This document shows positions 4,903 to 53,600 of a DNA stretch of 64,000 nt, one piece after another (positions within the stretch are counted from its first letter, which is position 1; every line of letters begins with the position of its first letter). Below the pieces are notes generated by a model. That model was given only the letters and a program-made list of their open reading frames with translations. It did no database searches and had not been told where the DNA came from. The DNA is taken from NCBI GenBank assembly GCA_018001225.1, contig JAGNIJ010000006.1, positions 29,188 through 93,187 on the forward strand, written 5' to 3'. Both the position numbers and the translations under genes were made by a program. The DNA comes from Kiritimatiellia bacterium. Lineage in GTDB: Bacteria; Verrucomicrobiota; Kiritimatiellia; CAIQIC01; JAGNIJ01.

Positions 4903-4999
4903 GCTTCGCCGCGCTGGAGGCGGGCCGCCCCCGGCCCGCGTCGGACGTCTTGTCGCCGCTTGACTCGATCACCGTACGGGGTATTGTGAAATGGATCGC

Positions 5000-5095: not shown

Positions 5096-5172
5096 GGGGT
5101 CTCCCGGCGAGACCCGTTGCATTCCCGCCCCCGGGCCAGGACTCCCACGCGAACGGCCGAAGGAGAACCGCC

Positions 5173-21426: not shown

Positions 21427-21506
21427 GATCGGGCCGAGAATACGGGGGAAGAGGGCCCGGCTCAAGCTGAAGTTGCGCCGCGGGAGGCGGGCCGCCCCCG
21501 GCCCGC

Positions 21507-24500
21507 TTACGGGGAGAGCACCCGGACCCGGTACAGGCGCGAGGTGATGCTCGGCGTGGCGAAGTTGGTGTCCACGTACGTAGTCGTGCCGGAACTGCCC
21601 CAAAACGCGCCGCCGAGGTAGAGCCAGCCGTTCGTAAAGGGCGGCGCGGCGCTGCGATAGAGAACCTGGTAGCGGCGGTTGGTGCTGGACAGGAACCGGA
21701 TCTGCGCCCAGCGGCTGGTCGGAATCGCGGCCGCCTGGGTCACGCGCAGGAGGCTGTTGGCGAGGTTGGGGTCGGTATCCGCCATGTACTCCTCGTAATT
21801 CGACAACCCGTCGCCCTCGATGTCGATGTTGCGGTCCGCGTCGTTCGTGGGATTGAGGCCGTTGGTCTGCTCCCACGTATTCGGCATGCCGTCGCCATCC
21901 CGGTCGCTGTCGCAGGCGTCGCCGACGCCATCACCGTCCAAGTCGGCCTGGTCCAGGTTGGCGACGTTGATGCAGTTGTCCTCGATGTCGCGGAGGCCGT
22001 CGGAATCCGCGTCGTGGTTGGTGTTGCACAGCGTGCAACGCAGGACGACGTCGTCCACCTCCCAGAACAGTTCGTTCCGGGCGTTGTAATAGCGGAACCG
22101 GATGCCCACGTTGGTCAGGCCGGCGAGCGGGGTGGTGAGGTTGATGGTCTCGGTGGCCGGGCCCCGGTAGTCGGCCCGCGACTTCCGCCAGACGTTCGAC
22201 CATGGGCCGGAGAACCCGCTTCGGCAGATATCCACGTCGCAGGTTTCGGACCGGTTGCCGGAGTACCAGTCGAAATCGGTCTTGAACTCGAGTTCCACCG
22301 AGCTCACGGCGCCCAGGTTCAGCACGGGTGGGCGCATTTCCACGTCCATCGTCACGCGGGAGTAGAACCGGCTGTCGGCGATGGCCATGCCGTTGGAGCC
22401 GCCGGTGCCGTTGACCACGTCGCGCGGATTGTCGAACCGCCACGCGGCGGTGCCGCTGTTGGTGGCCAGGGTCCAGCCCGCGGGCAGCGTTTCGGAGGAG
22501 AACGACTCGTCCAGCAGGTTGGTGGTCACGATCGCCCCGGTACACTCATCGCATGCGTCGCCCGTGCCGTCCCCGTCCCGGTCAAGCTGGTTGGCATTGG
22601 CGATGCCCGGGCAGTTGTCCACGCTGTCCTCGACGCCGTCGAGGTCCGCGTCCACGGCGCAGGCGTCGCCGATGCCGTCCCCGTTGGAGTCCTGCTGCCC
22701 GGGATTGGAGGTGGTCGGGCAGTTGTCGCTGTCGTTCGGGATGCCATCGTTGTCGCTGTCGTCGTCGCAGGCGTCGCCCTGTGAGTCCCCGTCGGCATTT
22801 TCCTGCAGCGGGTTGTATGCGGAGGAGCAGTTGTCGAGCGAGTTCGACACCCCGTCGCCGTCCAGGTCGAGGTCGCACGCATCGCCCTGCCCGTCGCCGT
22901 CCAGGTCGGCCTGGTCCGGGTTGTAGGTGGCCGGGCAGTTGTCCTCGTCGTCGTAGATCCCGTCGTTGTCGTCGTCGTAATCGCAGGCATCGCCGTCGCC
23001 GTCGCCGTCACTGTCCACCTGGTCGGCATTGGCGAGATACGGGCAATTGTCGCTGGCGTTCAGCACGCCGTCGTCGTCGATGTCCGGATCGCAGGCGTCG
23101 CCGAGCCCGTCGCCGTCCGCGTCGCTCTGGATGGGGTTCCAGTTGGTGGGGCAGTTGTCGTCCGGGTCGAAGAAACTGTCGCTGTCGGTGTCTTTCTCGC
23201 CGGTGACCAGGCTGCCGGAGATCTGCCCGCTGTTGATCGCGCCCGGGGTGGCCGTGGCCAGGATCCAGTTCGTGGTCGTGCCGATGATATCGTTGGGCGC
23301 CTGGAGCGTGGTGTCTGTCGAGGAATCGGCGCGCAGAACGTGAAGGTAGGTGTTCTCGAGCGACGAGATGTTGGTGAACACGGTGCCGGGGTCGTCGTAG
23401 GCCAGGTCGCCCGCGCCGCCCCAAGCGATGGCGTCGAGGATATTGGTCACCGAGTCGTAGAGGACCAGGCCGTCGCCGGGCCCGTTTTGAAGGCTATCCG
23501 GCAGCAAGAGGTCGGTATTGGCCACGTTGTTGCTGTTCTGGCTAATCACCACGAAGCCCATGGCCTGTCCGTTGGTGTTGACCACGCCGTCGTCCGGCAC
23601 GGTGATGGAAGGCAGGTCATACCGCCACAAACCGCCCTCTTCGTTCGTGGCCCCGTTGAAATGGCGGATGAAATAGCCCTGGAGATTCACCCCGGCCGGC
23701 GCGATGAGTTCAACAAACTCGTTGGTGTCCGTGCTGTTGCCGTCCGCTTGAACCTCGTTGAAGAACGGGCGGGATGCCGCCTCGTAGGTGGCCGGGAAAG
23801 CGTAACTGTTGGTCACGGTGAAGCCCGGGCTGACGGCGTTGGTGCCCTGGAACGCATACCGGACATAATAATCGAAGCTGTCGCCGGCGTCGGGCGACAT
23901 GGAGAGGGTGCCGGTGGACCACTGGTTGCTCGCGCCCTCCGTCATGGCGTTGCTCACCCAGGCGCCGCTCGCGATCCGGTAGAACGCCGCGGCGGCCAGG
24001 TTGGAGGCGGGGAGGTTGTCCTGGAGCGCGACCACGATCGCCACGGCCGTGGTGTGGAAGGGCGCGGAGGGCGACAGGCGCAGGGAGGAACTGACCACGC
24101 CGGCCTGGTCGCAGGCCGCGTGGACCCGGGGCGTGGCCAAGGCCCCCGCCACGAGGGTCCACTCGTTGGTGTCGAATTCCGACAGGGGATCGCAGACCCC
24201 GGCCTTGCGGTACACCGCGTTGCTGCGGTAGGCCCAGGCCATGCTGTAGTCGTTGGTGCTCGCCGGCTCGCCGGAGACGCCGTAGATGTCCATGATCGAG
24301 CCGGCCGAGTTTTTCAGCGCCACCACGTCGTTGCCGTTCAGGAACAACAGGTTGGTGTGCGCCCGTTCCGCGCCCAGGCCGTACGCGTTGAAGAAATCGG
24401 AGGTCCGGGCCGTGACGATGTAGGTCTGGCCCGCGGCGATCGAGTTGCTCAACGGCACGTTCAGCGTCGTGGAGCCGTCCCGGTAGATGACCAGCGTGTA

Positions 24501-30300: not shown

Positions 30301-30885
30301 ATGCTGGACATCGGACAGACCCTGCGCGAGGCCCGGGAGAGGAAGAAAGTGACGTGCTCCCAGGCCGCGTCCGCGACGCGGATGAAGGTCCAGCACGTTG
30401 AGGCCCTCGAGCGCAATGACTTCAAGCCCATGGCCGCGCCGACGTACGCCAAGGGGTTCATCCGCCTGTACGCGGGCTACCTGGGCCTGGACCCCGGGCC
30501 CCTGATCCGGGCCTACACGGAGCAGCATGCGGCCAAGGAGCCGCCCTCGCTCGTGGCGGAGGACCGCAACTATTCGCGCCCTTCGCTGGCGGACCTCGCG
30601 AGCCGCCAGGCGCGGCGCCTCTGGGCCGCGTGCCGCCCGAAGCTGGTGGCGTGGAAGAGACCGCTGTGGATCGCCGGCCTGCTCGTTCTCGTGTTCATCG
30701 CGTGGCGGCTGTGGCGGGGCCGGGAGAAGGCGATGCCCGCGCCGCCCGAGGCGGTCGAGACCCGGGCCGCGGAGCCCGCGAGCCCGCGCCCGCCCCTGCC
30801 GCTGCTCCGGGAACCCCCGGACGCCTACCTGGATGACGTGAAACCCGCGGCGGAGCGGACGCCGCCTCCCGGACCGGCCCGATGA
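30301..30885 (+). CDS. RodZ-like cytoskeleton protein (XRE-type HTH + TM)
   Basis: N-terminal HTH (IGQTLREARERKKVTCSQAASATRMKVQHVEALE), a single TM (LWIAGLLVLVFIAWRLW), and a Pro-rich tail. Confidence 0.5.
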   Translation: MLDIGQTLREARERKKVTCSQAASATRMKVQHVEALERNDFKPMAAPTYAKGFIRLYAGYLGLDPGPLIRAYTEQHAAKEPPSLVAEDRNYSRPSLADLASRQARRLWAACRPKLVAWKRPLWIAGLLVLVFIAWRLWRGREKAMPAPPEAVETRAAEPASPRPPLPLLREPPDAYLDDVKPAAERTPPPGPAR

Positions 30886-31466
30886 ATCTGCCGAACATGC
30901 TGACCTTGAGCCGCCTCCTGCTGGCCGCCGTGATGATGGCCTTTCTGTCGCTGGAGTTTCCCTTCGCGCGGACCGCGGCGCTGCTCGTCTTCAGTGCCGC
31001 GGCGATCACGGACTATTTCGACGGCTACCTGGCCCGGCGCCACTACGGCATCACGGCGTTCGGGCAGCTGATGGACCCGCTCACGGACAAGGTGCTGGTC
31101 TGCGCCGCGTTTGTCAGCTTCGTCGGGATGCAACTGGTGCCCGCGTGGATCGCGGTGGTGATCATCGGCCGCGAATTCCTGGTCACGGGGCTTCGCCTGC
31201 TGGCCGCGCATCGCGGCCACGTGGTCTCCGCGGGGCGGTGGGGCAAGCACAAGACCGTTTGGCAGATCACGGCCATCGTGCTGGTGCTGATGGGCCTGGC
31301 GCTGCGCCACGATTTCCTGGGCCGGGCCTCGCCCGCGGCGCTGGAGTCCTTCGACCTGTGGTTCGGCCGCCTGACCTACGCGATCTCGCTGGCCGTCGCG
31401 GGAATCACGCTGGTCTCCGGCGGGCTGTATTTCCGGGAGCACCGGGACGTGATCGACGCCCGCTAA
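30882..31466 (+). CDS. pgsA: CDP-diacylglycerol--glycerol-3-phosphate 3-phosphatidyltransferase
   Basis: CDP-alcohol phosphatidyltransferase motif D-x2-DG-x2-AR...G-x3-D-x3-D (ITDYFDGYLARR...GQLMDPLTDK). Confidence 0.8.
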   Translation: MNLPNMLTLSRLLLAAVMMAFLSLEFPFARTAALLVFSAAAITDYFDGYLARRHYGITAFGQLMDPLTDKVLVCAAFVSFVGMQLVPAWIAVVIIGREFLVTGLRLLAAHRGHVVSAGRWGKHKTVWQITAIVLVLMGLALRHDFLGRASPAALESFDLWFGRLTYAISLAVAGITLVSGGLYFREHRDVIDAR

Positions 31467-31591
31467 TACCAGGTACGGGTGAGAGGCGGTACGAACGGCG
31501 TCGCAGAGCTCCGCCCTCCAGTGGCAGGAATCATGGAGGGGCGAGCTCCTGCGAGCCCGAAATCTACCCGCCTCACCCGGATTTGGTATAA
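31465..31591. repeat. MITE-like 127-bp hairpin element, copy 1 (terminal inverted repeats ATACCAGGTACGGGTGAGAGGCGG / CCGCCTCACCCGGATTTGGTAT)
   Basis: About 97% identical to the second copy at 38556-38684. Terminal plus nested internal inverted repeats (CGCAGAGCTCCGCCCTCC...GGAGGGGCGAGCTCCTGCG). Sits in a convergent intergenic gap and abuts the pgsA stop codon. Confidence 0.65.
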
Positions 31592-31611
31592 CTCGTGGCG
31601 GCCTCGCGCCG

Positions 31612-32451
31612 TCAGGCCGGATTCTCCGCCGCCTCCGCCTCGATCTGCTTGCGGATCCGGTCCAGGCAGGCGTCGTAGGCCAGCGCGGTCGTGAGGAAGA
31701 AATGGCAGGAGCGCCCGGTGAGGCGCCGGACCTCGTCGCGCAGCTCGGTGTCGTAGGGGTTGAGCAGGGCCACCAGCGCGTCGGAATTCATCAGCTCGAA
31801 CACCACCGCGGCGCGGCGCGCCATGAAATCCGCGGGCAGCAGGCTGTAGGCCTCCTTCGGCAGGTCGAACTGCCCGAGCGGGATGATCGGCAGCCCGCTG
31901 TTGATGGACATGAACTGCAGGATCTTGTCGATCTGCTTGAACCCCCGGTCGTAGAGGACGTGCTGGACCGTGACGGGCACGACCACCGTGCGCATGGAAT
32001 TCTCGCTTAAGTCGTGCGCGATGGAGGCGTAGTCCTCCTGGGAGAGCTCCCCGGCCTGCGCCAGGTTCCAGGCCAGCGCGAGCTCGGGGGCGATATCCAC
32101 GCCGCGGCGGCGGACGGGTTCGGCGGCGGCGGCCGCGGGCTCCACGGGCGAGGTCAGGCGGGTGAGCCGCTCCGCCAGGGCCGCCGCGGGGGGCTGGCCC
32201 GCGCCCAGCTCGTGGAGCTTCTCGATGATCCGGGGCGCGGCCTCGGCGTCCGATTCGTCCGCCACGACGCGCGCCAGGCGGACCAGGTACTCGAGGGCCT
32301 TGGGGCGGTCGCCGATCTCCTCGTAGGCGTCGAACAGGGTCTCGAGCGCCAGCCGGTCGTCCGGCAGGGCTTCGAGGATCTGCTCGAAGGCGGCGATGGC
32401 CTCCCGTACGTGGGGGGCATCTCCCGAGGCGTCCTGTGGGTTCTTGTCCAT
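31612..32451 (-). CDS. Stand-alone GspE-N-terminal-like (T2SSE_N / MshEN-like) domain protein
   Basis: C-terminal half matches the T2SSE_N fold pattern (LLPADFMARRAAVVFELMNSDALVALLNPYDTELRDEVRRLTGRSCHFFLTTALAYDACLD). No ATPase domain. Divergently adjacent to a PilB/GspE-like ATPase. Start taken at MDKNPQ (alternative at 32499). Confidence 0.5.
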   Translation of the reverse strand: MDKNPQDASGDAPHVREAIAAFEQILEALPDDRLALETLFDAYEEIGDRPKALEYLVRLARVVADESDAEAAPRIIEKLHELGAGQPPAAALAERLTRLTSPVEPAAAAAEPVRRRGVDIAPELALAWNLAQAGELSQEDYASIAHDLSENSMRTVVVPVTVQHVLYDRGFKQIDKILQFMSINSGLPIIPLGQFDLPKEAYSLLPADFMARRAAVVFELMNSDALVALLNPYDTELRDEVRRLTGRSCHFFLTTALAYDACLDRIRKQIEAEAAENPA

Positions 32452-32585
32452 CCGGCTTTCCTGTTGGGCCTTTGTCCTATATAATACACAAGATGCCATT
32501 TGTCATCCAGCGCCTGCGGCCGGGCGGGCCGGCGGCGGTTGGCATTGCAGTTGCTTGAAGGACAGGGAACGGGAAGGAAAGCGCC

Positions 32586-34298
32586 ATGGAAGCGGGTTCG
32601 TTGGGCGAACGGGTACTGGATATTCTGTTGCAGCGCCGGGACATTCCCGAGGAACCGCTGCGCGAAGTGCGGCAGGAGGCCAGCACCTCCGGCCGGCGGC
32701 TGGAGAAGCTGCTGGTCGAGAAAAACCTGGTCTCCGCCCTCGACATGACCCTTGCCCTGGCCGAGCATCTGAAAATTCCGCCGATCACGCTGACCCATTT
32801 CACGCCCAATCCCGACCTGCTCCAGATCCTGCCGATGGAACTGCTGGCGGCGCACGCCATGCTCCCGCTGGACCGCACGGGCTCCATGCTCACGCTGGCC
32901 GTGGCCGATCCCTTCGACGTGGTCGGCCTCGAGGAGGTCCATACCCATACCCACCTGGAGATCGTGCCCGTCGTGGCCGCCGAGAAGGAGGTCACCGACC
33001 TGCTCCAGCGGTTCACGAAGGCGCCGGGCCAGGGGCTCGAGGAAATCATCCGGGACGTGAGTGAAGGCGAGGTCGAGGTCGGCCGCGAGGAGAAGGAGGA
33101 GATCAGCCTCGAGGAGATGCTGGAGAGCGCCGGCGACGCGCCGGTCATCCGGATCGTCAACTCGATCATGATCGAGGCGATCCGCAAGCACGCCAGCGAT
33201 ATCCACGTGGAGCCGATGGAAAAAAGCATCCGGCTGCGCTACCGCATCGACGGCTCCCTGTACGAAACGCCGAGCCCGCCGAAGTCGCTGCAGTCCGCGA
33301 TCATCTCGCGCGTGAAGATCATGGCCAACCTCAACATCGCCGAGCGCCGCATCCCGCAGGACGGCCGCTTCCGCATTCGCGCTGTCGGCAAGGAGGCCGA
33401 CGTGCGCGTCAGCATCCTGCCCACCGTGCACGGCGAGAAGATCGTCATGCGCATCCTCGACCGCGCCGCGCTGGCGCCCAACCTGGCGTCGTTGGGGCTG
33501 GACAAGAAGGCCTACGAGGATCTGCGGTATTCCATCGGCCAGCCGCACGGCATGATCCTGGTCACCGGGCCGACGGGCAGCGGCAAGACCACCACCCTCT
33601 ATTCCGCCCTGCAGGAGCTGAACACCCTCGACGTCAATATCATCACGATCGAGGACCCGGTGGAGTACCAGTTGCAGGGCATCAACCAGATCCAGGCCCA
33701 CCCGGAGGTCGGCCTGACCTTCGCCACCGGCCTGCGCTCCATCCTGCGGCAGGACCCCGACATCGTGATGGTCGGCGAAATACGCGACCAGGAAACGGCC
33801 GCCATCGCCGTCCAGGCCGCCCTGACCGGCCACCTGCTGTTGAGCACCCTGCACACGAACGACGCCGCCGGCGCCGTGGCCCGGCTCCTCTACATGGGCA
33901 TCGAGGCGTTCCTGCTGGCCTCGTCGCTGATCATGACCCAGGCGCAGCGGCTGTACCGCAAGCTCTGCCCGGCCTGCAAGAAGGAGCGCCGGATGCCCCT
34001 CGAAATTCTGCGGCTGAACCATATCGACCCGGAACGGTTCGCCGACGTCAAGATGTACGAGGCCGTCGGCTGCCCGAAATGCTTCAACACGGGCTACCGG
34101 GGCCGGGCGGCGCTGATGGAGGTTCTGCTCCTGGATGACCCGGTGCGCGCCCTGATCCTCGAGGAAGCCAGCGCGGGCGCGATCCGGGAGCAGGCCGTCA
34201 AGGGTGGCATGCTCACCCTCCGCGAGGCGGGATTGCAGCGCGTCCGCGAGGGGATCACCAGCATCGAGGAAGCGCTGCTCGTCACCAGCGGAGACTAG
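32586..34298 (+). CDS. PilB/GspE-family secretion ATPase (second copy)
   Basis: T2SSE_N domain, Walker A GPTGSGKTTT, and the tetra-Cys motif CPAC...CPKC. Paralogous to gspE at 7977. Confidence 0.8.
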   Translation: MEAGSLGERVLDILLQRRDIPEEPLREVRQEASTSGRRLEKLLVEKNLVSALDMTLALAEHLKIPPITLTHFTPNPDLLQILPMELLAAHAMLPLDRTGSMLTLAVADPFDVVGLEEVHTHTHLEIVPVVAAEKEVTDLLQRFTKAPGQGLEEIIRDVSEGEVEVGREEKEEISLEEMLESAGDAPVIRIVNSIMIEAIRKHASDIHVEPMEKSIRLRYRIDGSLYETPSPPKSLQSAIISRVKIMANLNIAERRIPQDGRFRIRAVGKEADVRVSILPTVHGEKIVMRILDRAALAPNLASLGLDKKAYEDLRYSIGQPHGMILVTGPTGSGKTTTLYSALQELNTLDVNIITIEDPVEYQLQGINQIQAHPEVGLTFATGLRSILRQDPDIVMVGEIRDQETAAIAVQAALTGHLLLSTLHTNDAAGAVARLLYMGIEAFLLASSLIMTQAQRLYRKLCPACKKERRMPLEILRLNHIDPERFADVKMYEAVGCPKCFNTGYRGRAALMEVLLLDDPVRALILEEASAGAIREQAVKGGMLTLREAGLQRVREGITSIEEALLVTSGD

Positions 34299-34327
34299 GG
34301 AAGGCGACGGCGCGAGGAGAAATCACG

Positions 34328-35458
34328 ATGGCCATCAGCACAACGCCGGGAAGCCGGTCCCGTTCCGCCGCGACCGCCGCCTCGGCCCCGATCCGGAAGC
34401 GCCGGATCCCCGGCGCGCAGAAGATCAAGGCCAAGGAACTGCCGGCCTTCACCCGCCAGATGGGCGCCATGCTGTCGGCCGGTCTGCCGGTGGTCCAGAC
34501 CCTGGAGGCGCTGGAGGAGCAGAACACCAACAAGGTCTTCAAGCACGTCATCAGCGGCGTCAAGTCGCGCATCGAGGGCGGGGCGTCTTTTTCCGAGGCG
34601 CTGGCCCAGTACCCGGACATCTTCGACGAGCTCTACATCAGCATGCTGCGGGCCGGGGAGAGCGGGGGCATGCTGGCGGAAACCACCGCCCGCATCGCGA
34701 CCTTTCTCGAGGGCTGGGTGCGGCTGAAGCGCAAGGTCAAGTCGGCCATGATGTACCCCGTCATCGTGATGGTGGTCGCCCTGCTTATCACGTCGTCCCT
34801 GATCATCTGGATCGTGCCCATCTTCGCGAGCATCTATGCCGACTTCGGGGCGGATCTTCCCGGCCCCACCCAGTGGCTCATGAACGTCAGCACCGCCATG
34901 CGCAAGAACGCGGTTTTTGTCGTGGCGGGGATCGTCGTGACGGCGATCGCCCTGGGCCAGTTCAAGAAAACCGAGAAGGGGGCGTTCATGTGGGACGGGA
35001 TCAAGCTCCGGCTCCCGGTTGTCGGCGAACTGGTGCGCAAGATATCCCTCGCCCGATTCTCCTCCACCTTCGCCCAACTGACGCGCAGCGGGGTGCCGAT
35101 CCTGCAAACCATGGAGATCGTCGCCTACGCGACGGGGAACAAGGTGCTGGGCAAGATCGTCCTTGACGCGCGGACCAACGTCGAGCGGGGCGAGCCCCTC
35201 TCCGCGGCCCTCAACAAGAGCAGGGCCTATCCCCGCCTGCTGATCCACATGCTCACGGCGGGCGAAAAAACAGGCCGCGTGGACGAGATGCTCGCCAAGA
35301 TCGCCGACTTCTATAACGACGAAGTGGAGACCACGCTCGCGGGCCTGACCTCCCTCATTGAGCCCCTGCTGATCGTGTTCCTGGGCGTGATCATCGGCGG
35401 CGTCGTGGTCTGCATGTTCATGCCCATCTTCAAGATGCATGAGATCGTAGGCTTCTGA
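34328..35458 (+). CDS. PilC/GspF-family platform protein (second copy)
   Basis: Two PilC/GspF repeats and 3 TM. Paralogous to gspF at 9736. Confidence 0.75.
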   Translation: MAISTTPGSRSRSAATAASAPIRKRRIPGAQKIKAKELPAFTRQMGAMLSAGLPVVQTLEALEEQNTNKVFKHVISGVKSRIEGGASFSEALAQYPDIFDELYISMLRAGESGGMLAETTARIATFLEGWVRLKRKVKSAMMYPVIVMVVALLITSSLIIWIVPIFASIYADFGADLPGPTQWLMNVSTAMRKNAVFVVAGIVVTAIALGQFKKTEKGAFMWDGIKLRLPVVGELVRKISLARFSSTFAQLTRSGVPILQTMEIVAYATGNKVLGKIVLDARTNVERGEPLSAALNKSRAYPRLLIHMLTAGEKTGRVDEMLAKIADFYNDEVETTLAGLTSLIEPLLIVFLGVIIGGVVVCMFMPIFKMHEIVGF

Positions 35459-35668
35459 AGCCCGCTCTGAATCCGGCGGCAGGGCAGAATCGAGATGCGT
35501 TGCGTGATCCACGCGCATGCTCCAACACCCCTTTGGATAATCGCCGCCGGACCACTCCCTTTGCATGAAAAATGCATCCATTTTTTACAAAATGAGAACA
35601 TTTTTCTTAACATTGAGTGGATAAACCTGTACTCTTACCCCGGTGGTCGGGTTGTCTTGGAGATTATT

Positions 35669-37048
35669 ATGGCGCGAATACTCTTGGTGGATGACGAGGC
35701 CAGTATCCTTAGCGTGTTAAGCACCTTGCTCAAGGCCGAGGGGCACGAGGTGCTGCCGGTCATGGGCGGCGAGAAGGCGCAGGACCTCATCCGCAACGAG
35801 CAGTTCGACCTCATGATCTCGGACATCCGGATGAGCCCCGTAGACGGCATGCAGCTTCTCCAGCAGATCCGCAAGGAAAAGCCCCAGACGGCGGTAATCA
35901 TGATCACGGCGTACGGGTCAGTGGAGACTGCCGTCGAAAGCATGAAGCAGGGCGCCTTTGACTACGTGACCAAACCCTTCAAGGTGGACGAGCTCCTGCT
36001 GACCGTCCAGCGGGCGCTGGAGTACGGGGCGGCGATGGCGGAGAACGTTGAACTCAAGGCCCAGATCGAATCGCGTTACCATTTCGAGAACATCATTGCC
36101 GAGAGCGCGGCCATGCGCCGGGTCTGCGAAATGATCGAGCGGGTGGCCCCGACGGATACCACCGTGCTGATCCTGGGGGAGAGCGGGACGGGCAAGGAAC
36201 TGGTGGCCAAGGCCATTCATGCCCACAGCCGCCGGAAGAACAAGCGGTTCCTGCCCATCAACTGCGCGGCCATGCCCGAGCCGCTCCTGGAGTCAGAGAT
36301 GTTCGGGCACGTCAAGGGCGCCTTCACGGGAGCCACCGTCAACAAGGATGGCTTGTTCGAGGCCGCCAACGGCGGGACGATCTTCCTGGACGAGATCGGG
36401 GCCATGCCGCCCAGCATCCAGGGCAAGCTCCTGCGAGTGCTCCAGGACAAGCAGATTCGGCGGGTGGGGGGGACCGACTCGGTGGCCGTGGATGTCCGTG
36501 TCCTGGCCGCCACAAACGACCGGCTGGAAAATCTGATCGAGCAGGGCAAGTTCCGGGAAGACCTGTATTATCGTTTGAGCGTTATCCCTATAGAAATCAA
36601 GCCGCTGCGGGAGCGTATCGAGGATGTCCTTCCCTTGTGCTATCACTTTCTCCGCCAGGAGGCGGGCCCCAACCGCGAGCCTTTGCCCGTGGATCCGGAT
36701 GCCCAGTTGGTCATGGAGCAGTACTCCTGGCCGGGTAACGTGCGGGAACTGGAAAACGCCGTCCGCCACGCCATGACCTTCGCACAGGAAAAGGGGCGTA
36801 TCACGAGGGATGTCCTGCCCGCGAAGATTGTCGCGGCAGTCGACAGCGGAGCCACGACCGCGGCGGCGATAGGAATCCGCGCCGAGCAGTTCAAGGGTAA
36901 ATCACTGAAGAGCTTCCTTCGCAGCAAGGAAAAAGAGTACCTTGAGCAGGTGCTAAAGAACGTTGATGGTGATAAAGCCAAGGCCGCCAAGGCGTTAAAG
37001 ATAAGCCTTGCCACTCTCTACCGGAAGCTTCCGGAGCCCAGAGAATAA
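35669..37048 (+). CDS. Sigma-54-dependent response regulator (NtrC/PilR family enhancer-binding protein)
   Basis: REC domain (LLVDDE...D in LMISDIRM), AAA+ sigma-54 activator domain with Walker A GESGTGKE and the GAFTGA motif, and a C-terminal Fis-type HTH. Preceded by a low-GC leader containing the palindrome TGCATGAAAAATGCA. Confidence 0.85.
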   Translation: MARILLVDDEASILSVLSTLLKAEGHEVLPVMGGEKAQDLIRNEQFDLMISDIRMSPVDGMQLLQQIRKEKPQTAVIMITAYGSVETAVESMKQGAFDYVTKPFKVDELLLTVQRALEYGAAMAENVELKAQIESRYHFENIIAESAAMRRVCEMIERVAPTDTTVLILGESGTGKELVAKAIHAHSRRKNKRFLPINCAAMPEPLLESEMFGHVKGAFTGATVNKDGLFEAANGGTIFLDEIGAMPPSIQGKLLRVLQDKQIRRVGGTDSVAVDVRVLAATNDRLENLIEQGKFREDLYYRLSVIPIEIKPLRERIEDVLPLCYHFLRQEAGPNREPLPVDPDAQLVMEQYSWPGNVRELENAVRHAMTFAQEKGRITRDVLPAKIVAAVDSGATTAAAIGIRAEQFKGKSLKSFLRSKEKEYLEQVLKNVDGDKAKAAKALKISLATLYRKLPEPRE

Positions 37049-37300
37049 GGCTTGTTGCAAACGTTTTATAACAAGTAACTTGTCCCTCGCTATACCGCTT
37101 TCGATTATTTTCAAAGTTGTTATGTCATCTTTTATAATTTGATTACACATTGTCGATTGTTAAAATATTGTGTATTATATTGTCTATTAAATAGTTGCGA
37201 AGATGTTATCCGTCGCCGAAGCATTTTTTTATTCCAATGTGCGCATCGGTATCTATTGGTTTTGTATCTTTTTCGGCCCTTTGAATGGCCTTGGCTCGCA

Positions 37301-37316
37301 TGGCATGGTGATTGCT
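37301..37316 (+). promoter_or_regulatory. Sigma-54 (-24/-12) promoter TGGCATGGTGATTGCT upstream of first pilin gene
   Basis: GG-N10-GC spacing with TGGCA and TTGC elements (consensus TGGCACG-N4-TTGCW). About 65 nt upstream of the ATG at 37383, in an AT-rich 300-bp intergenic region. The TTCCAATGT half-motif lies at 37232-37240. Confidence 0.6.
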
Positions 37317-37382
37317 TATTATCAATACGAAGGGCTGGGGTAGCCCATGGCGGATAAGAGAAAACAACTAGAGGAGAATGCA

Positions 37383-37733
37383 ATGAGAAGGAATGCTGGT
37401 TTCACGCTGGTGGAGATCATGATCGTTGTGGCCATCATTGGCCTGTTGGCGGCCATCGCCATTCCGTCGTTTGTGCGCGCGCGCCAGACGACCCAGACCA
37501 ATACCTGCATCAACAACCTCCGGCTGATTGATGCGGCCAAGCAGCAGTGGGCGCTGGAAACGGGCGCGGCGGCCGATGCGGCCCCGGGCGAAGCGGACAT
37601 CCAGCCCTACATGAAGAATGATGAATCCCCGATTTGCCCCCTCTCCGATGCGTTTGATTACACCATCGGCGACCTGGCAACGGATCCGACCTGCGCGAAT
37701 TTCAACGCCGATTCGCATAACGCCGTTCTGTAA
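37383..37733 (+). CDS. Prepilin-type (type IV pilin / pseudopilin-like) protein with CINNLRLID...QWALE motif
   Basis: MRRNAG|FTLVEIMIVVAIIGLLAAIAIPSF class III signal. 116 aa. Paralog of 37864-38241. An alternative upstream ATG at 37347 precedes the predicted transcription start. Confidence 0.7.
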   Translation: MRRNAGFTLVEIMIVVAIIGLLAAIAIPSFVRARQTTQTNTCINNLRLIDAAKQQWALETGAAADAAPGEADIQPYMKNDESPICPLSDAFDYTIGDLATDPTCANFNADSHNAVL

Positions 37734-37741
37734 GTGGTCAG

Positions 37742-37785
37742 TCCACCCGTTAGCAGCCCCGGCATGGCGCCGGGGCTGCTTTTTT
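37742..37785 (+). terminator. Rho-independent terminator after first pilin gene
   Basis: AGCAGCCCCGGCATGGCGCCGGGGCTGCTTTTTTTG: a perfect GC stem plus a T7 run. Confidence 0.75.
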
Positions 37786-37824
37786 TGTGTAATTATTTGC
37801 CCGTGAAATAGATAAGCTGGAGCT

Positions 37825-37840
37825 TGGCATGAAGCCTGCT
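37825..37840 (+). promoter_or_regulatory. Second sigma-54 promoter TGGCATGAAGCCTGCT upstream of second pilin gene
   Basis: GG-N10-GC with TGGCAT and CTGC elements, about 25 nt upstream of the ATG at 37864. Confidence 0.5.
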
Positions 37841-37863
37841 TTATTTATATGCACTCGGGCCCC

Positions 37864-38241
37864 ATGAAAAGGCGAATCCAGTGTCGCACGGCGGTGGTTC
37901 CGAAACGGGCGACTCTACGGCGCGGGTTCACCTTGCTTGAAATCATGATCGTGGTCAGTTTCATTGGGCTCCTGGCAGGATTGGCCGTTCCCGGCTTGCT
38001 GCGCGCAAGGCAGTCCTCCCAGCGGGTGCGGTGCATCGACAATCTTCGTCAGATCGATTCCGCGAAGGAGCAGTGGGCCATGGAGAATTTCGCCGGCGAG
38101 GGGGACCCGGTGGGCGAGGGGGACATCACCCCGTATTTCCAGAGGGGTTTCCCCGTGTGCCCCGCCCGGGGCGAGTACACGATCATGGCGATCGGACAGA
38201 ATCCGCAGTGCGACCAGGACGGTCACGTGTTGCGCGAGTAG
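37864..38241 (+). CDS. Prepilin-type protein, paralog of 37383 (CIDNLRQIDSAKEQWAME motif)
   Basis: RRG|FTLLEIMIVVSFIGLLAGLAVPGL class III signal. Conserved C-x-NLR-ID-AK-QWA-E block shared with the upstream pilin. Leader is 21 aa from ATG 37864; a GTG at about 37894 would give 11 aa. Confidence 0.65.
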   Translation: MKRRIQCRTAVVPKRATLRRGFTLLEIMIVVSFIGLLAGLAVPGLLRARQSSQRVRCIDNLRQIDSAKEQWAMENFAGEGDPVGEGDITPYFQRGFPVCPARGEYTIMAIGQNPQCDQDGHVLRE

Positions 38242-38298
38242 TTCGGTCTCCGGCGCAGCAATTCGAATTATGACCTACCCGCCTCGGAAGCGATGTGT

Positions 38299-38394
38299 TG
38301 TCATTCCGAGCGAAGCGGGGAATCTCCAGCGTTCTTCACGACTCCGGAGATCCCTCCCGCCGGAGGTGGGCAGGCGGCTCCGCTCGGGATGACA
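38299..38394 (+). repeat. Long-range inverted repeat TGTCATTCCGAGCG ... CGCTCGGGATGACA enclosing a GC-rich 68-nt segment downstream of the pilin genes
   Basis: 14-bp arms with one mismatch, read directly. Lies in a 310-bp non-coding stretch with further local hairpins. Possible RNA stability or terminator element, or a small RNA. Confidence 0.35.
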
Positions 38395-38555
38395 GAACCC
38401 CGTTTGGAACAGGCCCAAATGCGAATGGCGGCTTCCGGCGTTGGGGGGATCGTACAGGCTTGTAACTGGATAGGATGAAGGCTCCGGGCCATCCTGCTTC
38501 TACGGCCTTACGGCCGCGCTACCAGCAGGAGGTTTGCAGCGCGCCCGTCAGGGCG

Positions 38556-38684
38556 TAATACCATGTACGGGTGAGAGGCGGTGCGAACGGCGTCGCAGAG
38601 CTCCGCCCTCCAGTGGCAGGAATCATGGAGGGGCGAGCTCCTGCGAGCCCGAAATCTACCCGCCTTCACCCGGATTTGGTATAA
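38556..38684. repeat. MITE-like hairpin element, copy 2
   Basis: Near-identical to 31465-31591 (2-3 substitutions and a 1-nt indel). Also sits in a convergent intergenic gap. Confidence 0.65.
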
Positions 38685-40735: not shown

Positions 40736-40808
40736 GACCCCATCATCTAGAGGCCTAGGATACCAGGTTTTCATCCTGGACACACGGGTTCGAATCCCGT
40801 TGGGGTCG
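40736..40808 (+). tRNA. tRNA-Glu (anticodon TTC)
   Basis: GACCCCATCATCTAGAGGCCTAGGATACCAGGTTTTCATCCTGGACACACGGGTTCGAATCCCGTTGGGGTCG. The 7-bp acceptor, D-arm, anticodon loop TTTTCAT and T-loop GGTTCGAATCC resemble E. coli tRNA-Glu. No encoded CCA. Confidence 0.8.
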
Positions 40809-47346: not shown

Positions 47347-47421
<75 letters not shown>

Positions 47422-47630: not shown

Positions 47631-50600
47631 ATGAGGCGCACTTCATATAGCGTGGGGAGTGTGGTCTGCCGTGGCGGGCTGTTGCTGGGCCTGTGCGTGG
47701 CGCTGGCCGGGCCGGCGGCGGGCGAGGTGCTCTTCCAGGAGGACTTCGAGAGCGGTATCCTGGCGCCCTGCTGGGCGACAAACTCCACCGGCCAGGGACG
47801 CCTCCGCGTCACCGAGGACTGGACGCCCGCGGGCGGCGTCCGGCACGTGGTGATGGACGATTTTCAGAGCGACCTGGTCTCCTCCCGGAACGAACTGGTC
47901 CTGACCGTGGACCTCGGCGGGCAAAGCAATGTCGTTTTGAGTTTCCAGCACAAGTCGCTCAACGACGAGGATCACGAGATGCCCGACTCGTTCGGCGGCA
48001 GCCATGATTCGGACGGCGTGGCCGTCAGCGACGACGGCGGCACGACCTGGCACAAGATCCAGGGCCTGACCTCGTCCAATTTCACAGCCTCCGGCTACAA
48101 GTCGTTCGAGGTGCCGTTGACCCCGGGCGCGGCCTGGTCCCTGGTCGACGATTTCAAGATCAAGTTCCAGCAGTACGACGACTCGCCGGCAGAGGAGGAC
48201 GGGTTTGCGCTTGACGACATTCTCCTGGAGACGGTTTCCACGGCGCCCGGCGCGGACCTGACCTTGACCCTGGGGGCGCTGTTCTCCGGGCAGGGGCTCG
48301 CGGTTTCGAACGAGTACCCGCTGCTGTTGACGCTGGTGAACAAGGGGCCGCGGGAGGCCGTCGACGTCACGATCACCAACCGGCTGCCCGCGGGCGTCGA
48401 ACTCGTCACGGCCACGCTGGGCTACGAGGTCGATCCGGTCGGCCATGCCGTCCTATACCGCCTCGCGGAAATGGCCGCCGGCCAGACCTCCAGGTTCTGG
48501 ATGATCTGTTCGCCGGGGGTGACCGGCCTCTGCGTGTGGACGTCGGTCGTGACCTCCGCCGGCGCGGATACGAACGCCGCCGATAATACCGCGGCGTACC
48601 AAACCACGTTCGGGCCCCGGGGGGAACCCGCCGCGGATATCGGAGTTGAGGTCACGCTGTCCGATGCGGCCTGCCTTTCCCAGCCGTTCACCAACACGGT
48701 ACACTTGGAGAACTACACCGCCGAATACGTTTCCAACGTCCTGATCGTCAGCGAGTTCTCGGCGCCCGTGGAGATCCTGGACGGCTATTTCCGGGCCCAC
48801 AGCAACCAGCTGTGCAGTTCGCTCACCCTGACCCCTTCGTGGGGCGCCTTTTTCTCGTACCGGGTGCGGGCGACCCGGGAGGGCCTGCTGACGAACATCG
48901 TGCGGATCAGCGCGGCCCGCTCGCTGGCCTCCACGAACGGGCTGGTTTTCACCAATGTGATCCAGATCATCCCCGACTCGTCCTGGGAGCAGGTCCTGGA
49001 CGGCTACTGCGAGGGGCGCTACCTGGCCGGCGCCTATTCCGGCGGGGCGGACGACAGCCAGCCGGCGCTGGCGGACATGGACGCCGACGGCGACCCGGAC
49101 GCATTCATCGGCAGCGCGGACAAGCTGATGTATTACCGGAACATCGGCACCTCCAACGCGCCGGCGTGGGCGCCGCCCGTGCTGGTCCGACGGTTCTGGT
49201 CTAACGAGCGGCATGCCCCGGCCCCCGCGGACCTGGACGGGGACGGCGATCTCGATCTGCTGGTGGGCCGGCTCTGGGGAAACCTGATGCTGATCGAAAA
49301 CGAGGGCACCGCCACCAACGCCGCCTGGGGGGAACCCCAGTACAGCTACGGCGGCATCGACGTTGACTCCACCAGTGTCCCGGCCCTGGCCGACGTGGAC
49401 GGCGATGGCGACCCGGACCTTTTTGTCGGCAACGGCGACGGCGACATCCTCGTGTACACCAACACCGGGACCGCCGCCTCGGCCGCCTGGAGCGGGCCGT
49501 ACACCAACTTCCCGTGCCCGATTCCCAATTACGCGTACGCGGCGCCCCGGCTCGCGGACCTGGACGGCGACGGGGATTTCGATCTCGCGGCGGGCTACGA
49601 TCCGTATCCTTCACGGACCAACGCCTTCTGGCTCTACTGGGCCAACACCGGGACCGTCTTCCAGCCGCGGTGGGCGCCGTTCGCGACGCAGGAACTCGGG
49701 GTCGCCGCGGCGCACTACTTCGCCTCCTTCGCCCCGGCGTTTGCCGACCTGGACGGCGACGGTGACCTGGACGCCTGTATCGGCCAGTCGCAAGGCCGGC
49801 TGGATTTCGTGGCGAACCTGGGGCAGGCGACGCAGGCGGTGTGGCTGGGCCGGGGCGAACGGGTTTTCCTGCTGGACCTGCCCTCCCCGCAGATCGCCGG
49901 CGGCGACCTGGACGGCGACGGGGACGGCGACCTGCTGGTGAAGGGCCCGCACGACCCGCACCTGTGGCTGTACGAGAACGCGGGCACCCCCCTGCTGCCC
50001 ATCTGGCACCTGGCCACCACCAACTACCTGAACTGGACCGGCGGAGTCATTTACGGCATGACGTTCTGCGACATCGATGCCGACGACGATCCCGACCTGC
50101 TGGTCAACACGGCGGATCTCCTGGACGACACCCGCTGGATCATCATGTTTCTGGAAAACACCGGGACGGCGGCCCAGGCCTCCTGGGCCGCCCCGGTTCA
50201 TGACTACCTCGTCCTGAACGCCGCCACGGGCCATATGAACTACGGCGCGGTGGCGGCGGGCGACATGGATGACGACGGCGACTTCGACCTGTTCATCAAA
50301 GGATGGATCACCAACGGGCCCTTGCTCTACATCCAGAACACCGGGACGGCCGCCGCGGCCGCCTGGGCCCCTCCCGCGGATCCCGGAGTGGCCTGGTTCG
50401 GGGGGAATTACCATACGCCTCTGATCCTGGACATGGACGAGGACGGCGACCACGACCTGATCGGCATGACGGGCAGGGATTGGGTGTTCTACCCGAACAC
50501 CGGCGACGCGCAGCAGCCCCGGTGGTCGCTTCCGAGGCGTTTGTATGCCCCGGTGGACCCGTTCGGCCTCAACGATTTTGTGCAGTCCGGCGCCGCGATG

Positions 50601-53600
50601 GACCTGGATGCCGACGGCGATCTCGACCTGCTGTTCGCCACCGCGGAGGGCGGCTTGCTGTTCTACCGGAACCAGGCGGAGAAGCTGCAGGTGATCCCGG
50701 GGCAGCGGCCGCTGGAGCCGGGCGCGGGCTGCGATTTCAACCTCACGAACGGGTCGCCGGCCGCCTGGCAGTTCGTCGTGAACCGGAGCGGCGGAACGCT
50801 GGACCCGGCGACCGGCGCCTACCAGGCCGGCCCGACGCAGGCCCTCGACATCGTCGAGTCCCGCCTCGCGGACGGCCGCTACGGCCGGGCGTTCGTCCAG
50901 GTGATCAGCAACAGCCTGTCGGCCGGCCAGTCCCGGGCCATCGTGATGGCCGGCAGCAAGACCGCCGTGCTGACCGACGACCCGGCCTGGGAGGCGACCG
51001 ACTACCTGGCGGACCTGGCCTTCAACGCGCTGCGGGCCCGCGGCTACAGCAAGGGCAGCATGGCCTACTTGAGCCCCATGGTGGGACAGGACGTGGACGG
51101 CGACGGCTACCCCGACGTGACCCGGGCGACCACCCGGGCGAACGCCGAGTGGGCCTTCCAGACCTTCGCCCCGGGCGCGTCGAATCTCTTCGTCTACCTA
51201 GTCGACCACGGCGCCACGAACGAGGGCGGCGGATACTTCCGGCTGAACTCGACGGAGATTCTGGCGGCCACCAACCTGTCCGCCTGGCTCGACGGCCTGC
51301 AGGACGTTCACGGGATGGACGTGACCGTGGTGCTGGACTTCTGCCAGGCCGGCAGCTTCCTCGCACCCCTGGCGTATACCGGCGCCGCCGCGCGCATCGT
51401 CATCGCCGGCGCGGGCCCCGCCGAGGCCGCCTACTTCGTGGCGGGCGGGCTCGTGAGTTTTTCCGAGGCGTTCTTCCACGGCGTGCGGCTCGGGCTGGGG
51501 CTGGGCGAATCCTTCCGGGTGGCCCGCCGCGCGATGAGCGATTACCAGGACGCCTGGCTCGACGCGGACAAGGACGGCCGCTTCGACGAGGGCGTGGACG
51601 ACGCGGCCGGGGCGCTGGACCTGCCGGTGGGCGTGAGCATCGGCGGTGAACAGGGCGCCCCGCAGGTGGGGCTCATTGCGGACAACCAGTACCTGGACGG
51701 CGACAGCGCCGCGACCCTGTGGGCGGCGAACGTCTCCGCCGGGCAGCCGATCGACCGGGTCTGGTGCGTCGTGGTGCCGCCCGGGTATCAACCCGATCCC
51801 GACGTGCCCATCGCGTCCCTGCCCGAGATCGAACTGATCTATGCCGGCGGCCGGTACGAGGCGCAGTACACGGGTTTCGGCCAGGCGGGCACCTACAAGA
51901 TCATCTACTACGCCCACGCGCAGGGCGGAGGCGTGTCCCTGCCGAAGTACGGTTACGTCACGCAGGCCGGCGCGAACGAGCGCGCGATCCTTGTCGCCGG
52001 CGGGACGACCAACCTCGCCCTCTGGACCAACATCAACAGCGTGGCGAACGGCGCGTGGGAGACCCTGTTGGCCCGGCAGTTCACCACCGCCACGGTCTGC
52101 TACTTGAGCATGGACGCGGGGCAGCCGGGCGTGGACGGGGCGGTCTCCCTGGAGGCCGTCGGACAGGCCATCACGAACTGGGCCGGCGATTCGAAGAAGC
52201 TGACCCTGGTCCTCGTGGGCGAGGCGACGAACGATCTCCTGCGCCTCGCCGAGGGCGAGGACCTCGACGCACTCCAACTCGACGCCTGGCTGGACGCGTA
52301 CCAGGAGAGCAACCGGACGGTGATCGCCGCGATGGATTTCGCCGGCGCTGGAAGTTTCATCACCAACATGACCACGCCGCCCGGGCGCGAGCGAATCCTG
52401 ATCGCCGGTGCGGGGCCGGGCGAGCCCGCGGTCTGCGAGCAGTCCGGCTGGATCAGCTTCACCCGTGTATTTTTCAGCCACGTGTTCGACGGGCGCGACG
52501 TGCTCGAGTCCTTCCGGGCCGCGCGGGACATCGTCTTCAACCTCACCCGCGGCGCCCAGGACCCGCAGCTCGACGACAACGGCAACGGCGTGCCGAACGA
52601 GAAGGACGTCGAGGGCGCCGCGGCGCAAGGCGAGTACCTCGGGTCGGCCTTCGTGACCGGCGCCGAGGCGCCGGTGATCGGGGCCGTGACGCTGGACACC
52701 GTGCTGGCGGGCACGAACGCCCTCGTGCTCTGGGCCTCCGAGATCGTTGCGGCCGCCGGCGTGGACCGGGCCTGGTGCGTTGTTGCGCCGCCGTCCGACG
52801 CGGAGGATTCCGCCCTCGTGACCGTGGACCTGGCCTGGTCGGCCGGCGAAAGCCGCTACGAGGCGGCCTGCACGAACTTCACCGAGCCCGGCGTTTATAT
52901 CTGTACGTTTTTCGCCATGGATTACGACGGCGTGATCGGCGCGCCGCGCCAAGCCCAGGTCTTCAGCGCGGACCGGTACGAGCCGGACAACAGCGCGGAC
53001 GACGCCCGGCCCTTCGAGATCGCCGGCGTGCAGGTCCGCAATTTCCACGTCGCCGGCGACGAGGACTGGGTCGGGTTCTTTCTCGTCACCAACTACGTCT
53101 ACGAGCTGCGCACGCGGCAGCTCGGCACCAACGTGGACAGCGTCGTGGACCTGTACCGCGTGCTCGGCGACGGGAGCCTCTCCAACGTCGTGCACCAGGA
53201 CTTGCAGGGCGCGGGGGCCGGCCAGGGCGAGTACCTCCTGCTCGAGCACAGACCCGCGGGCCTGTACCTCGCGCGCGTGACCGCCTACCGGCCGTGGCAG
53301 GCGGGCCTGGGCACGGAATACGAGGTGCGCATCCACGTGCCGGCCGCGCCCTCGACGACCTTCCTCTGCATCCTCGGGGCGGACCTGCACGACTCGGATC
53401 GCTCCCCGCCGGGCGCGGTGGCCTGGGTGGACGGCGCGCCCCACGCTTTCTCCGGCGGCCGCAACTTGATCGAGCTGACGGGGATCGCGGCGAAGACGTA
53501 CACGATTACCGTGACGGCGCCCGGCTGCCTGCCCGCGCAGCACGCCAGCCGGGCCGGGCAGGTGGAGGACCAGAACAACCAGGCCTACGGCAATCCGCGG

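Follow-up and report, generated by a model that had tools for sequence, protein, structure and literature searches.

A probable MITE with a 3-bp T-R-A target-site duplication in a Kiritimatiellae genome

What are the two nearly identical hairpins that lie 7.1 kb apart, in the same orientation, in the 64-kb stretch of Kiritimatiellae DNA analysed here (the window)? A sequence-only reading of this stretch listed a MITE first, offered a structured RNA or a REP-type terminator as alternatives, and added that only two copies genome-wide, with neither target-site duplications (TSDs) nor a related autonomous element, would point to a local duplication. The two repeats are very probably copies of a non-coding MITE with a 3-bp T-R-A TSD, and this first-listed possibility is supported by the flanking 3-bp repeats, by empty sites in relatives, by a copy at a third site and by contig breaks. 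The element is an ordinary kind of selfish DNA, of a family that has not been described before.

Two copies between convergent genes

The features of the two sites are as follows.

30882 to 31466, + strand: pgsA (CDP-alcohol phosphatidyltransferase); ORF intact despite the insertion
31464 to 31466, + strand: left TSD of copy 1, TAA, doubling as the stop codon of pgsA; one TGA or TAA at this point in relatives
31467 to 31588, + strand: copy 1 of the probable MITE, 122 nt, non-coding, hairpin over the entire unit
31467 to 31482, + strand: left terminal inverted repeat (TIR) of copy 1, TACCAGGTACGGGTGA
31573 to 31588, - strand: right TIR of copy 1, minus-strand reading TACCAAATCCGGGTGA
31589 to 31591, + strand: right TSD of copy 1, TAA; the next 24 nt align with the 24-nt stretch downstream of the stop in the relative L007
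31612 to 32499, - strand: MshEN-domain gene, convergent; stop codon 21 nt from the right TAA of copy 1
37849 to 38241, + strand: pilin-like gene; copy 2 lies in the 474-nt gap downstream of it
38556 to 38558, + strand: left TSD of copy 2, TAA
38559 to 38681, + strand: copy 2 of the probable MITE, 123 nt; the orthologous interval in a 94% relative (L018) is 11 nt
38682 to 38684, + strand: right TSD of copy 2, TAA
38716 to 39918, - strand: conserved hypothetical gene, 400 aa, convergent, downstream of copy 2

Copy 1 lies between pgsA and the MshEN-domain gene and copy 2 between the pilin-like gene and the 400-aa gene, and the reported placement of both between convergent genes is borne out. One copy had also been said to abut a stop codon; the contact is real but closer than that, since the pgsA stop itself serves as the first TAA of copy 1. 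Exact-protein records exist neither for the MshEN-domain gene nor for two start variants of the pilin-like gene.

The description of two near-identical copies was accurate. With the flanking triplets included, similarity is limited to 31464-31591 and 38556-38684, which begin with TAA followed by TACCA and end with TGGTA followed by TAA, and the sequence outside these limits is unrelated. Over 129 columns the copies are 97.7% identical and differ by two substitutions (31474 G/T and 31491 A/G) and one indel, an extra T in copy 2. A blastn search of the unit against the window gave no third copy, and a scan of the window found the 16-nt terminus four times at <=2 mismatches, each time at an element end (shuffle expectation, 1.4 matches at <=3 mismatches). 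Two sequences close to the terminus, at 21518 and 48858, were rejected as chance matches, both being in coding sequence that is kept in relatives.

According to published criteria (PMC10969869), a MITE is shorter than 500 bp, has TIRs of 4-30 bp, lies between direct repeats and forms a stable stem-loop. With 122 or 123 nt and no coding capacity, the unit is within the MITE size range (about 50-500 bp); two of its six reading frames contain stop codons, and the other four are open only over its ~40 codons. A composite of the six-frame open stretches, in which stop-interrupted frames were entered only in part and which was aimed at copies inside called ORFs, had no protein match among 5.8 billion proteins. 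For annotation, the element accounts for spurious identical ORFs. Its TIRs of ~16 nt, within the range of about 4-30 bp, are imperfect (TACCAGGTACGGGTGA / TCACCCGGATTTGGTA in the window units; consensus TACCAGGTNCGGGTGA). They are not the perfect repeats of 20+ bp that had been claimed, since only 14/17 positions match in copy 1 and 13/17 in copy 2 (16/17 in the distant look-alike L005, described below).

The two halves of the element are ~70% complementary, so that a hairpin is possible over the full unit. The single long hairpin proposed earlier for the whole unit is confirmed by RNA folding (dG -70 to -73 kcal/mol, z -6 to -7.4, both strands) and DNA folding (z about -5). The element also has the A+T-richer composition that accompanies the stem-loop in MITEs, with a G+C content of 60-61%, whereas the window has 67.6% and the flanks 66-71%.

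Empty sites, further copies and flanking triplets

Site 1 is without the element in three runs of one relative with 93% identical pgsA (L007-L009) and in eight contigs of relatives with 87% identical pgsA (L010-L017). These contigs are syntenic with the window, and the distance from the pgsA stop to the stop of the convergent gene is 24, 4 or 3 nt. Adding 122 nt and one more stop-like triplet to the L007 site gives site 1 of the window, and the 24-nt spacer is conserved between the two. At site 2, L018 has 11 nt between the convergent stops vs 474 nt in the window, although this is not a clean empty-site alignment, since 314 nt around the element are also missing there. The same 94% relative has a third, diverged copy at a non-orthologous site upstream of its pilin-like gene, in the opposite orientation, with 28/29 identical positions at the left end, 67/75 over the right part and TGA/TGA flanks; its middle falls between the contigs L018 and L019 and is missing, and the window has no copy at this site. 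Hence all three sites show the presence and absence at orthologous positions that is expected of a mobile MITE. The empty sites in relatives are the decisive evidence for a MITE, and the insertions of both copies in this Kiritimatiellae genome are recent.

The only complete copies observed in this genome are the two in the 64-kb window; a higher copy number is inferred from breaks in contigs. Two independent runs gave Logan contigs that both stop at base 31495, ~30 nt into copy 1, with a last 31-mer that begins at the second base of the TAA, and the contig of L018 is broken at the same point within the element. Because copy 2 differs within that 30-mer, a break at 31495 requires at least one further copy. 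This implies an additional copy, which would carry a different base ahead of the final A of its T-R-A. A contig that ends within copy 2 (L004) was not counted as repeat evidence, as its break takes in a flank base and may reflect coverage rather than a repeat.

Duplicated flanks, which the sequence-only reading had suggested looking for, are present as the direct repeats typical of MITEs: TAA/TAA at both copies in the window, and TGA/TGA at the relative's third copy and at L005. The four reconstructed targets read S-TRA-S. Read from DNA of these filled and empty sites, the flanks show that the element inserts into 5'-T-R-A-3' and duplicates those 3 bp, a target preference based on n=4 insertions. 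The TA duplication of IS630/Tc1-mariner-derived MITEs (Correia/RUP type) does not fit, as the symmetric termini give a 3-bp TAA or TGA, and the third copy and L005 have TG ahead of ATACC, so that there is no TA/TA solution.

L005 is a metagenome contig (from ERZ1066122) of 75% G+C with a 123-nt hairpin bounded by perfect 16-nt termini (TACCAGGTCCGGGTGA). It has in common with the window element only the termini, the length and the form of the flanks, and its interior is unrelated. In a control, the 51 chance 16-mer matches in viral contigs were all single half-sites in unrelated sequence, with 0 TRA flanks and 0 inverted partners. L005 was rejected as an orthologous site with a conserved 3' structure, its 390-aa neighbour being an epimerase without similarity to the 400-aa gene. 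The two-arm palindromic pattern that gave L005 in metagenome contigs also matched L006, which was discarded as an assembly fold-back artefact because the palindrome continues through the flanks to the contig end, and the one match to the left-end pattern (23 specified bases) in a scan of genome contigs, in Streptomyces, was due to chance, with no likeness outside the pattern. The central 22-mer had 0 matches in metagenome contigs, the central 27-mer and the two-arm pattern had 0 matches each in viral contigs, the unit had no match in plasmid, phage and E. coli collections, and 35-nt end queries gave only chance-level matches of 18-26 nt in plasmid records.

Function, single-strand transposition or local duplication

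Could the hairpin instead be a functional RNA or DNA structure under selection in convergent gaps, such as a REP-like unit, a bidirectional terminator, a 3'-UTR stabiliser or a small RNA, with mobility secondary or absent? Such a role would suit the very stable hairpin on both strands, the position of both window copies in convergent gaps and the perfect hairpin of the same length that L005 has despite its unrelated interior, and terminator or sRNA roles of MITE transcripts are known from other bacteria (PMC10969869). Against it, the orthologous gaps of close relatives lack the element and are only 3-24 nt long, so no structure is needed there, and neither the third copy nor the L005 hairpin is in a convergent gap. 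Intrinsic (Rho-independent) terminators, a G+C-rich stem-loop with a T/U-tract directly after it, differ from both copies, in which no such tract follows the stem; a terminator scan was empty at both, and the same scan finds a textbook terminator at 37752-37780 that belongs to the neighbouring pilin gene. The element has no match in Rfam (best 8.6 bits, E 7.7, below threshold; the window passes only for tRNAs and a TPP riboswitch). Moreover, substitutions in copy 2 and in the third copy break pairs and are uncompensated. The element does resemble REP/BIME units and intrinsic terminators as a G+C-rich extragenic palindrome of a kind often found between convergent genes. REPs, however, are ~20-40 nt with a conserved head, are without the combination of TIRs and a TSD and are linked to RAYT genes, and the 122-nt unit with TIRs and a 3-bp duplication is not such a short palindrome. 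Given the empty orthologous sites, the missing U-tract and Rfam match and the uncompensated mutations, a structured RNA or a REP-type terminator is unsupported as the primary identity of the element, and selection for function is quite improbable.

A second possibility is that the element moves by palindrome-associated single-strand transposition through an HUH/Y1 transposase of the IS200/IS605 or RAYT type, and is not a DDE-mobilised MITE. The whole element is a hairpin, and L005 keeps the hairpin and the 123-nt length but not the interior, so the fold itself could be what is recognised. Elements of the IS200/IS605 type insert beside a fixed tetra- or pentanucleotide without duplication and have subterminal hairpins rather than TIRs. 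In the present element, 4/4 copies have the same triplet on either side, TAA in some and TGA in others, and the termini are true inverted repeats; REP/RAYT units are also much shorter. This makes single-strand transposition highly improbable.

Local segmental duplication or gene conversion of a 128-nt intergenic piece over 7 kb, without transposition, would account for two copies visible in 64 kb, close together, similarly oriented and nearly identical, but it is scarcely credible and already contradicted by the sharp boundaries, TIRs and matching 3-bp flanks, by both sites being empty in relatives, by the relative's third-site copy with its TGA/TGA flanks, by contig breaks that require more copies and by L005, a relative in another taxon. 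Two of the circumstances named earlier as pointing to such a duplication, only two copies and no TSD, are not what was found, and local duplication is therefore unsupported; the other, the lack of an autonomous element, holds so far.

Parentage, mechanism and significance of the probable MITE

The probable MITE has much in common with the prokaryotic MITEs Correia/NEMIS of Neisseria, RUP of S. pneumoniae, Chunjie of Geobacter and QMITE of Coxiella, which are likewise non-coding, ~100-200 nt long, with TIRs, TSDs and a full-length stem-loop, located in intergenic sites and polymorphic in insertion from strain to strain (PMC10969869). ERIC / IRU, the 127-bp enterobacterial element that is classed as a MITE in a review (PMC10969869), is alike in its near-equal size, imperfect full-length palindrome and intergenic site, but it belongs to another host phylum, and the element is without similarity to any E. 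coli genome. Nor is there any sequence similarity to the other prokaryotic MITEs in the collections searched. Correia and RUP elements, which derive from IS630, duplicate TA, whereas the duplication here is the 3-bp T-R-A. No report of a MITE in an uncultured G+C-rich Kiritimatiellae lineage was found in the literature searched.

In the mechanism proposed here, a DDE-type transposase would act in trans, recognising the termini and cutting with a 3-nt stagger, and the gaps would then be filled in. The parent would most plausibly be an IS5 / PIF-Harbinger-like insertion sequence, which is favoured because this superfamily gives 3-bp TNA/TWA duplications: the TSD of PIF/Harbinger is TWA, that of NuwaII is TNA in a C-TNA-G context, and bacterial IS5 relatives also have 3-bp TSDs (PMC4482050). 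The 3-bp T-N-A form characteristic of Tourist-like and PHIS elements is seen here as T-R-A in 4/4 insertions, although the targets here include TGA and not only TWA. An autonomous element with these termini was found neither in the window nor in ~213 kb of related loci, plasmid records or viral contigs; as no transposase was found, it is from the geometry of the duplication only that we infer PHIS descent. The TACCAGG... termini of the element are unlike IS5 termini that start with GG or GA, and its TIR is not known to resemble any IS5-family terminus.

Target choice may explain the placement of the copies. Because TAA is rare in a 68% G+C genome and concentrated at gene ends, insertions tend to fall at or just past stop codons, and insertion of copy 1 was neutral because the duplication regenerated the pgsA stop. 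Convergent gaps would simply be where insertions are tolerated, and their occupation would be no proof of function there; if the hairpin affects the 3' ends of transcripts from the neighbouring genes, that would be a by-product. The duplication of a stop codon upon insertion is a tidy case of target choice rendering a transposon harmless.

A bolder reading, which we consider unlikely, is that the termini TACCAGGTNCGGGTGA, the T-R-A duplication and the 122-123-nt fold-back define a wider superfamily across unrelated G+C-rich bacteria (67% and 75%), in which interiors are freely replaced and hairpin and length are kept. If true, this would point to a transposase family not yet described, one that depends on a hairpin substrate or measures it and has a preference for stop-codon triplets, and to a 'stop-codon-safe' insertion strategy.

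The probable MITE leaves the current understanding of MITEs unchanged. Its practical value is more local, in that it accounts for the breaks in short-read assemblies of this lineage just past pgsA and beside the 400-aa gene, and its insertions, being polymorphic among close relatives, offer a strain-level marker for an uncultured Kiritimatiellae clade. Stacked insertions have widened convergent gaps, which measure 3-24 nt in relatives, to 145-474 nt here, and the intergenic regions of the lineage are under remodelling by several small repeat families.

Anatomy and genomic setting of the two copies

The two copies of the element, a 122-nt unit (31467-31588) and a 123-nt unit (38559-38681), share a similarity that, with the flanking triplets included, spans 31464-31591 and 38556-38684 (global alignment with flanks) and has its edges at TAA/TACCA at the start and TGGTA/TAA at the end, the sequences beyond these edges being unrelated between the copies. 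They differ by two substitutions and one additional T in copy 2, which bears out the sequence-only reading of two hairpin copies with few differences, and a blastn search with the unit gave no third copy in the window (67.6% G+C). All four element ends match the 16-nt terminus TACCAGGTNCGGGTGA with at most two mismatches, and the few other near-matches to it in the window lie inside conserved coding sequence. The terminal inverted repeats, previously read as 20 bp or longer, are present but imperfect (14/17 and 13/17). That the whole unit folds into one hairpin holds, as its halves are about 70% complementary over their full length and either strand folds as RNA at −70 to −73 kcal/mol, compared to about −45 for shuffles (z = −6 to −7.4; z about −5 for the DNA fold). 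The unit has no coding capacity.

Both copies do lie in convergent gaps, and one of them abuts a stop codon in the strictest sense, since the first TAA of copy 1 is the stop codon of pgsA itself. This plus-strand gene encodes a CDP-alcohol phosphatidyltransferase that is 100% identical to an NCBI-named protein of a Kiritimatiellae bacterium MAG, and copy 1 takes up most of the 145-nt gap between it and a convergent MshEN-domain gene. A 474-nt gap starts after a pilin-like gene and has copy 2 at its far end, where the distance to the stop of a convergent gene, a conserved hypothetical of 400 aa, is 31 nt. The same gap contains a second inverted-repeat hairpin that is unrelated to the element and occurs only once in the window:

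38299-38394: hairpin with arms GTCATTCCGAGCGAAGC / GCTCCGCTCGGGATGAC

Empty sites and further copies

Homologues of pgsA with 93% and 87% identity gave access to fully syntenic contigs with the gene order FtsK, HTH_25, pgsA (site 1), MshEN, T2SSE, T2SSF, sigma-54 regulator, pilins (site 2), 400-aa gene, LpoB. At site 1 in the 93% relative, read in three sequencing runs, pgsA ends ...GACGCCCGC TGA and the convergent stop follows 24 nt on, while in the 87% relatives it follows 4 or 3 nt after TGA or TAA. Alignment shows that the window has ...GACGCCCGC TAA, the 122 nt, TAA, the identical 24-nt spacer and then the stop. The filled site is thus the empty site of the 93% relative plus the element and one additional stop triplet, and the pgsA reading frame is unaltered by the insertion. 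At site 2 only 11 nt separate the two convergent stop codons in a 94% relative (contig L018), the entire 474 nt of the window, copy 2 included, being extra. This is an absence without a clean junction because the surrounding 314 nt are missing in that relative too, and because the whole gap is so short there, the hairpin at 38299-38394 is also an insertion. The empty sites are the decisive test of mobility.

The L018 contig itself terminates upstream of the pilin-like gene with ...GGGAAG TGA TACCACGTACGGGTGAGAGGCGGTACGAA, which matches the element's left end at 28/29 positions. Contigs from three runs (L019-L021) that reach this site from the other side have identical last 200 nt, in which the element's right-hand 75 nt (89% identical) precede a TGA; the equivalent position in the window has no element. 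With copies 1 and 2, this third copy gives the family three non-orthologous sites across two closely related genomes, and every site is filled in one of the two and empty in the other.

Further copies are implied by where assemblies stop. Logan contigs with the window's exact pgsA from two independent runs both stop at base 31495, and their final 31-mer starts with the middle base of the TAA, such that the shared 30-mer consists of the last A and 29 nt of the element. Such a stop points to another locus with the same 30-mer and a different preceding base, for example a TGA-flanked copy, and copy 2 cannot be the cause since two differences fall inside that 30-mer. Hence at least one copy beyond copies 1 and 2 is implied, an argument from de Bruijn graph behaviour as opposed to a direct count. 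The L018 contig breaks at the same internal element position, while the break of a contig ending inside copy 2 includes a flank base and was left out of the argument.

The unit was without a match in Rfam and in plasmid, phage and E. coli genome collections, its central 22-mer was absent from the JGI metagenome collection, and the joined open stretches of all six frames matched none of 5.8 billion proteins. A pattern scan of species-representative genomes gave only a chance 24-mer in Streptomyces. A search pattern of the two termini only, separated by a 75-105-nt gap, found an ENA metagenome contig (L005, 75% G+C) with a 123-nt element that has perfect 16-nt termini TACCAGGTCCGGGTGA, TGA on both sides and a near-perfect hairpin (−88 to −92 kcal/mol). 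Its interior is unrelated to that of the window copies, and it lies between co-directional epimerase and family-2 glycosyltransferase genes, not in a convergent gap. As any fold-back can satisfy a palindromic pattern, L005 was judged on features outside the pattern, namely the same free terminus bases, the T-G-A flanks, a palindrome ending exactly at TACCA/TGGTA, and the length, and none of 51 chance half-site occurrences in viral contigs had these. Judged by these features, L005 is probably a relative of the family. A second match, in JADDYB010068695.1, was rejected as a family member; it folds back perfectly over a long stretch around position 1277 (L006 1100-1388) and is most likely an artefact of assembly or amplification that matched the pattern by chance.

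Identity, mechanism and alternatives

MITEs are defined by terminal inverted repeats, direct repeats, insertion polymorphism and a non-coding nature (PMC10969869). The target-site duplication raised in the sequence-only reading is present as 3-bp direct repeats, TAA or TGA across copies and matching within each copy (4/4), and with the inverted termini, the precise insertion polymorphism and the non-coding unit the element has the defining features of a MITE. That reading had left a structured RNA or a REP-type bidirectional terminator as alternatives; the empty sites and matched flanks favour the MITE. The element has the architecture of a standard prokaryotic MITE and is near ERIC and Correia-type elements in size and fold, without sequence similarity to them, while its 3-bp TRA duplication resembles those of Tourist/IS5.

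Mobilisation would be in trans, with a DDE transposase cutting T-R-A at a 3-nt stagger. All four reconstructed targets have the form S-TRA-S, and the IS5/PIF-Harbinger superfamily typically gives TNA/TWA duplications of three bases (PMC4482050). The copies flanked by TGA rule out descent from an IS630-type (TA) element. A parent element was not found in the window, related loci, plasmids or viral contigs. The plus strand of the 64-kb window has only 108 TAA triplets, and an element seeking TAA or TGA in a 68% G+C genome will frequently land at gene ends, where insertion into a stop codon restores the stop through the duplication. Target choice therefore explains the convergent-gap placement, and no host function is needed.

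The evidence disfavours a terminator or structured RNA under selection, since the element is missing from close relatives with gaps of only 3-24 nt, has no Rfam match and has no T-tract, although the scan detects the canonical terminator of the neighbouring pilin gene, a positive control that is conserved in the relative:

37752-37780: textbook intrinsic terminator after the pseudopilin gene, 12-bp G+C stem then T7

In addition, compensatory changes are lacking: the outer stem has mismatches in 3/16 pairs in the third copy versus 1/16 in copy 1, and the G-to-T change of copy 2 likewise breaks a pair, which is what neutral decay, and not a selected RNA structure, predicts. A by-product effect of the MITE on transcript 3' ends is possible. 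A hairpin-dependent HUH mechanism would fit the conservation of fold and length in L005 but is disfavoured by flanks that are variable yet duplicated and by true terminal inverted repeats. Local duplication is contradicted by the empty sites, the third copy elsewhere, L005 and the implied further copies. With low probability, the termini, length and hairpin shared by unrelated hosts reflect an undescribed transposase family. No report of MITEs in Kiritimatiellae was found in the literature searched, and the element is of use in annotation, assembly interpretation and strain typing.

Other repeats and features

Features of the window other than the element
4914-4942 (minus), 13412-13443 (plus), 21478-21508 (minus): 29-31-nt G+C-rich hairpin repeat GAAGCGGGCCGGGGGCGGCCCGCCTCCAG, 94-97% identity
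14534-14629: relatively A+T-rich inverted repeat, 39-nt arms, 79% complementarity, 18-nt spacer
4994-5101; 40736-40808; 47347-47418: TPP riboswitch and two tRNA genes, above Rfam thresholds
21880-23194 and 49062-51116: two sets of coding tandem repeats

The GAAGCGGGCCGGGGGCGGCCCGCCTCCAG repeats, one of which directly follows the stop of a large TSP_3-repeat gene, resemble a family of short repeats of the REP or terminator type, and the inverted repeat at 14534-14629 is made of CAACG/TCCAA-like short motifs. One coding set has a 108-nt period and Asp/Cys-rich units in a large minus-strand gene whose orthologues have Exo_endo_phos, LTD and TSP_3 domains, and the other consists of DxDxDG repeats (FG-GAP/VCBS-like).

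Another multicopy element occurs in the 93-94% relative (L007 6330-6374; L019 1-40), where it sits in the promoter gap of the divergent MshEN-domain and T2SSE genes, the window's empty site being at about 32520-32545. It has a direct-repeat flank GGCGGCGGTT and inverted ends CCCTGATGGTTAGCGAATCGGGG... / ...CCCCGCTTCGCTAATGATTAG; on the MshEN side contigs of at least two runs extend 114 nt beyond the gene and stop about 26-29 nt into the element, and the junction on the T2SSE side comes from one run. In GCA_018823105.1 (contig L073), an 81% relative, the same two convergent gaps as those of copies 1 and 2 are 301 and 161 nt (14245-14545, 6642-6802) and contain other hairpin repeats (GTAGCCGGGACC..., GTAGGGCGGCTTCGCTGAAGCCGCC...). 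The convergent gaps of this clade seem to gather small palindromic elements from several families.
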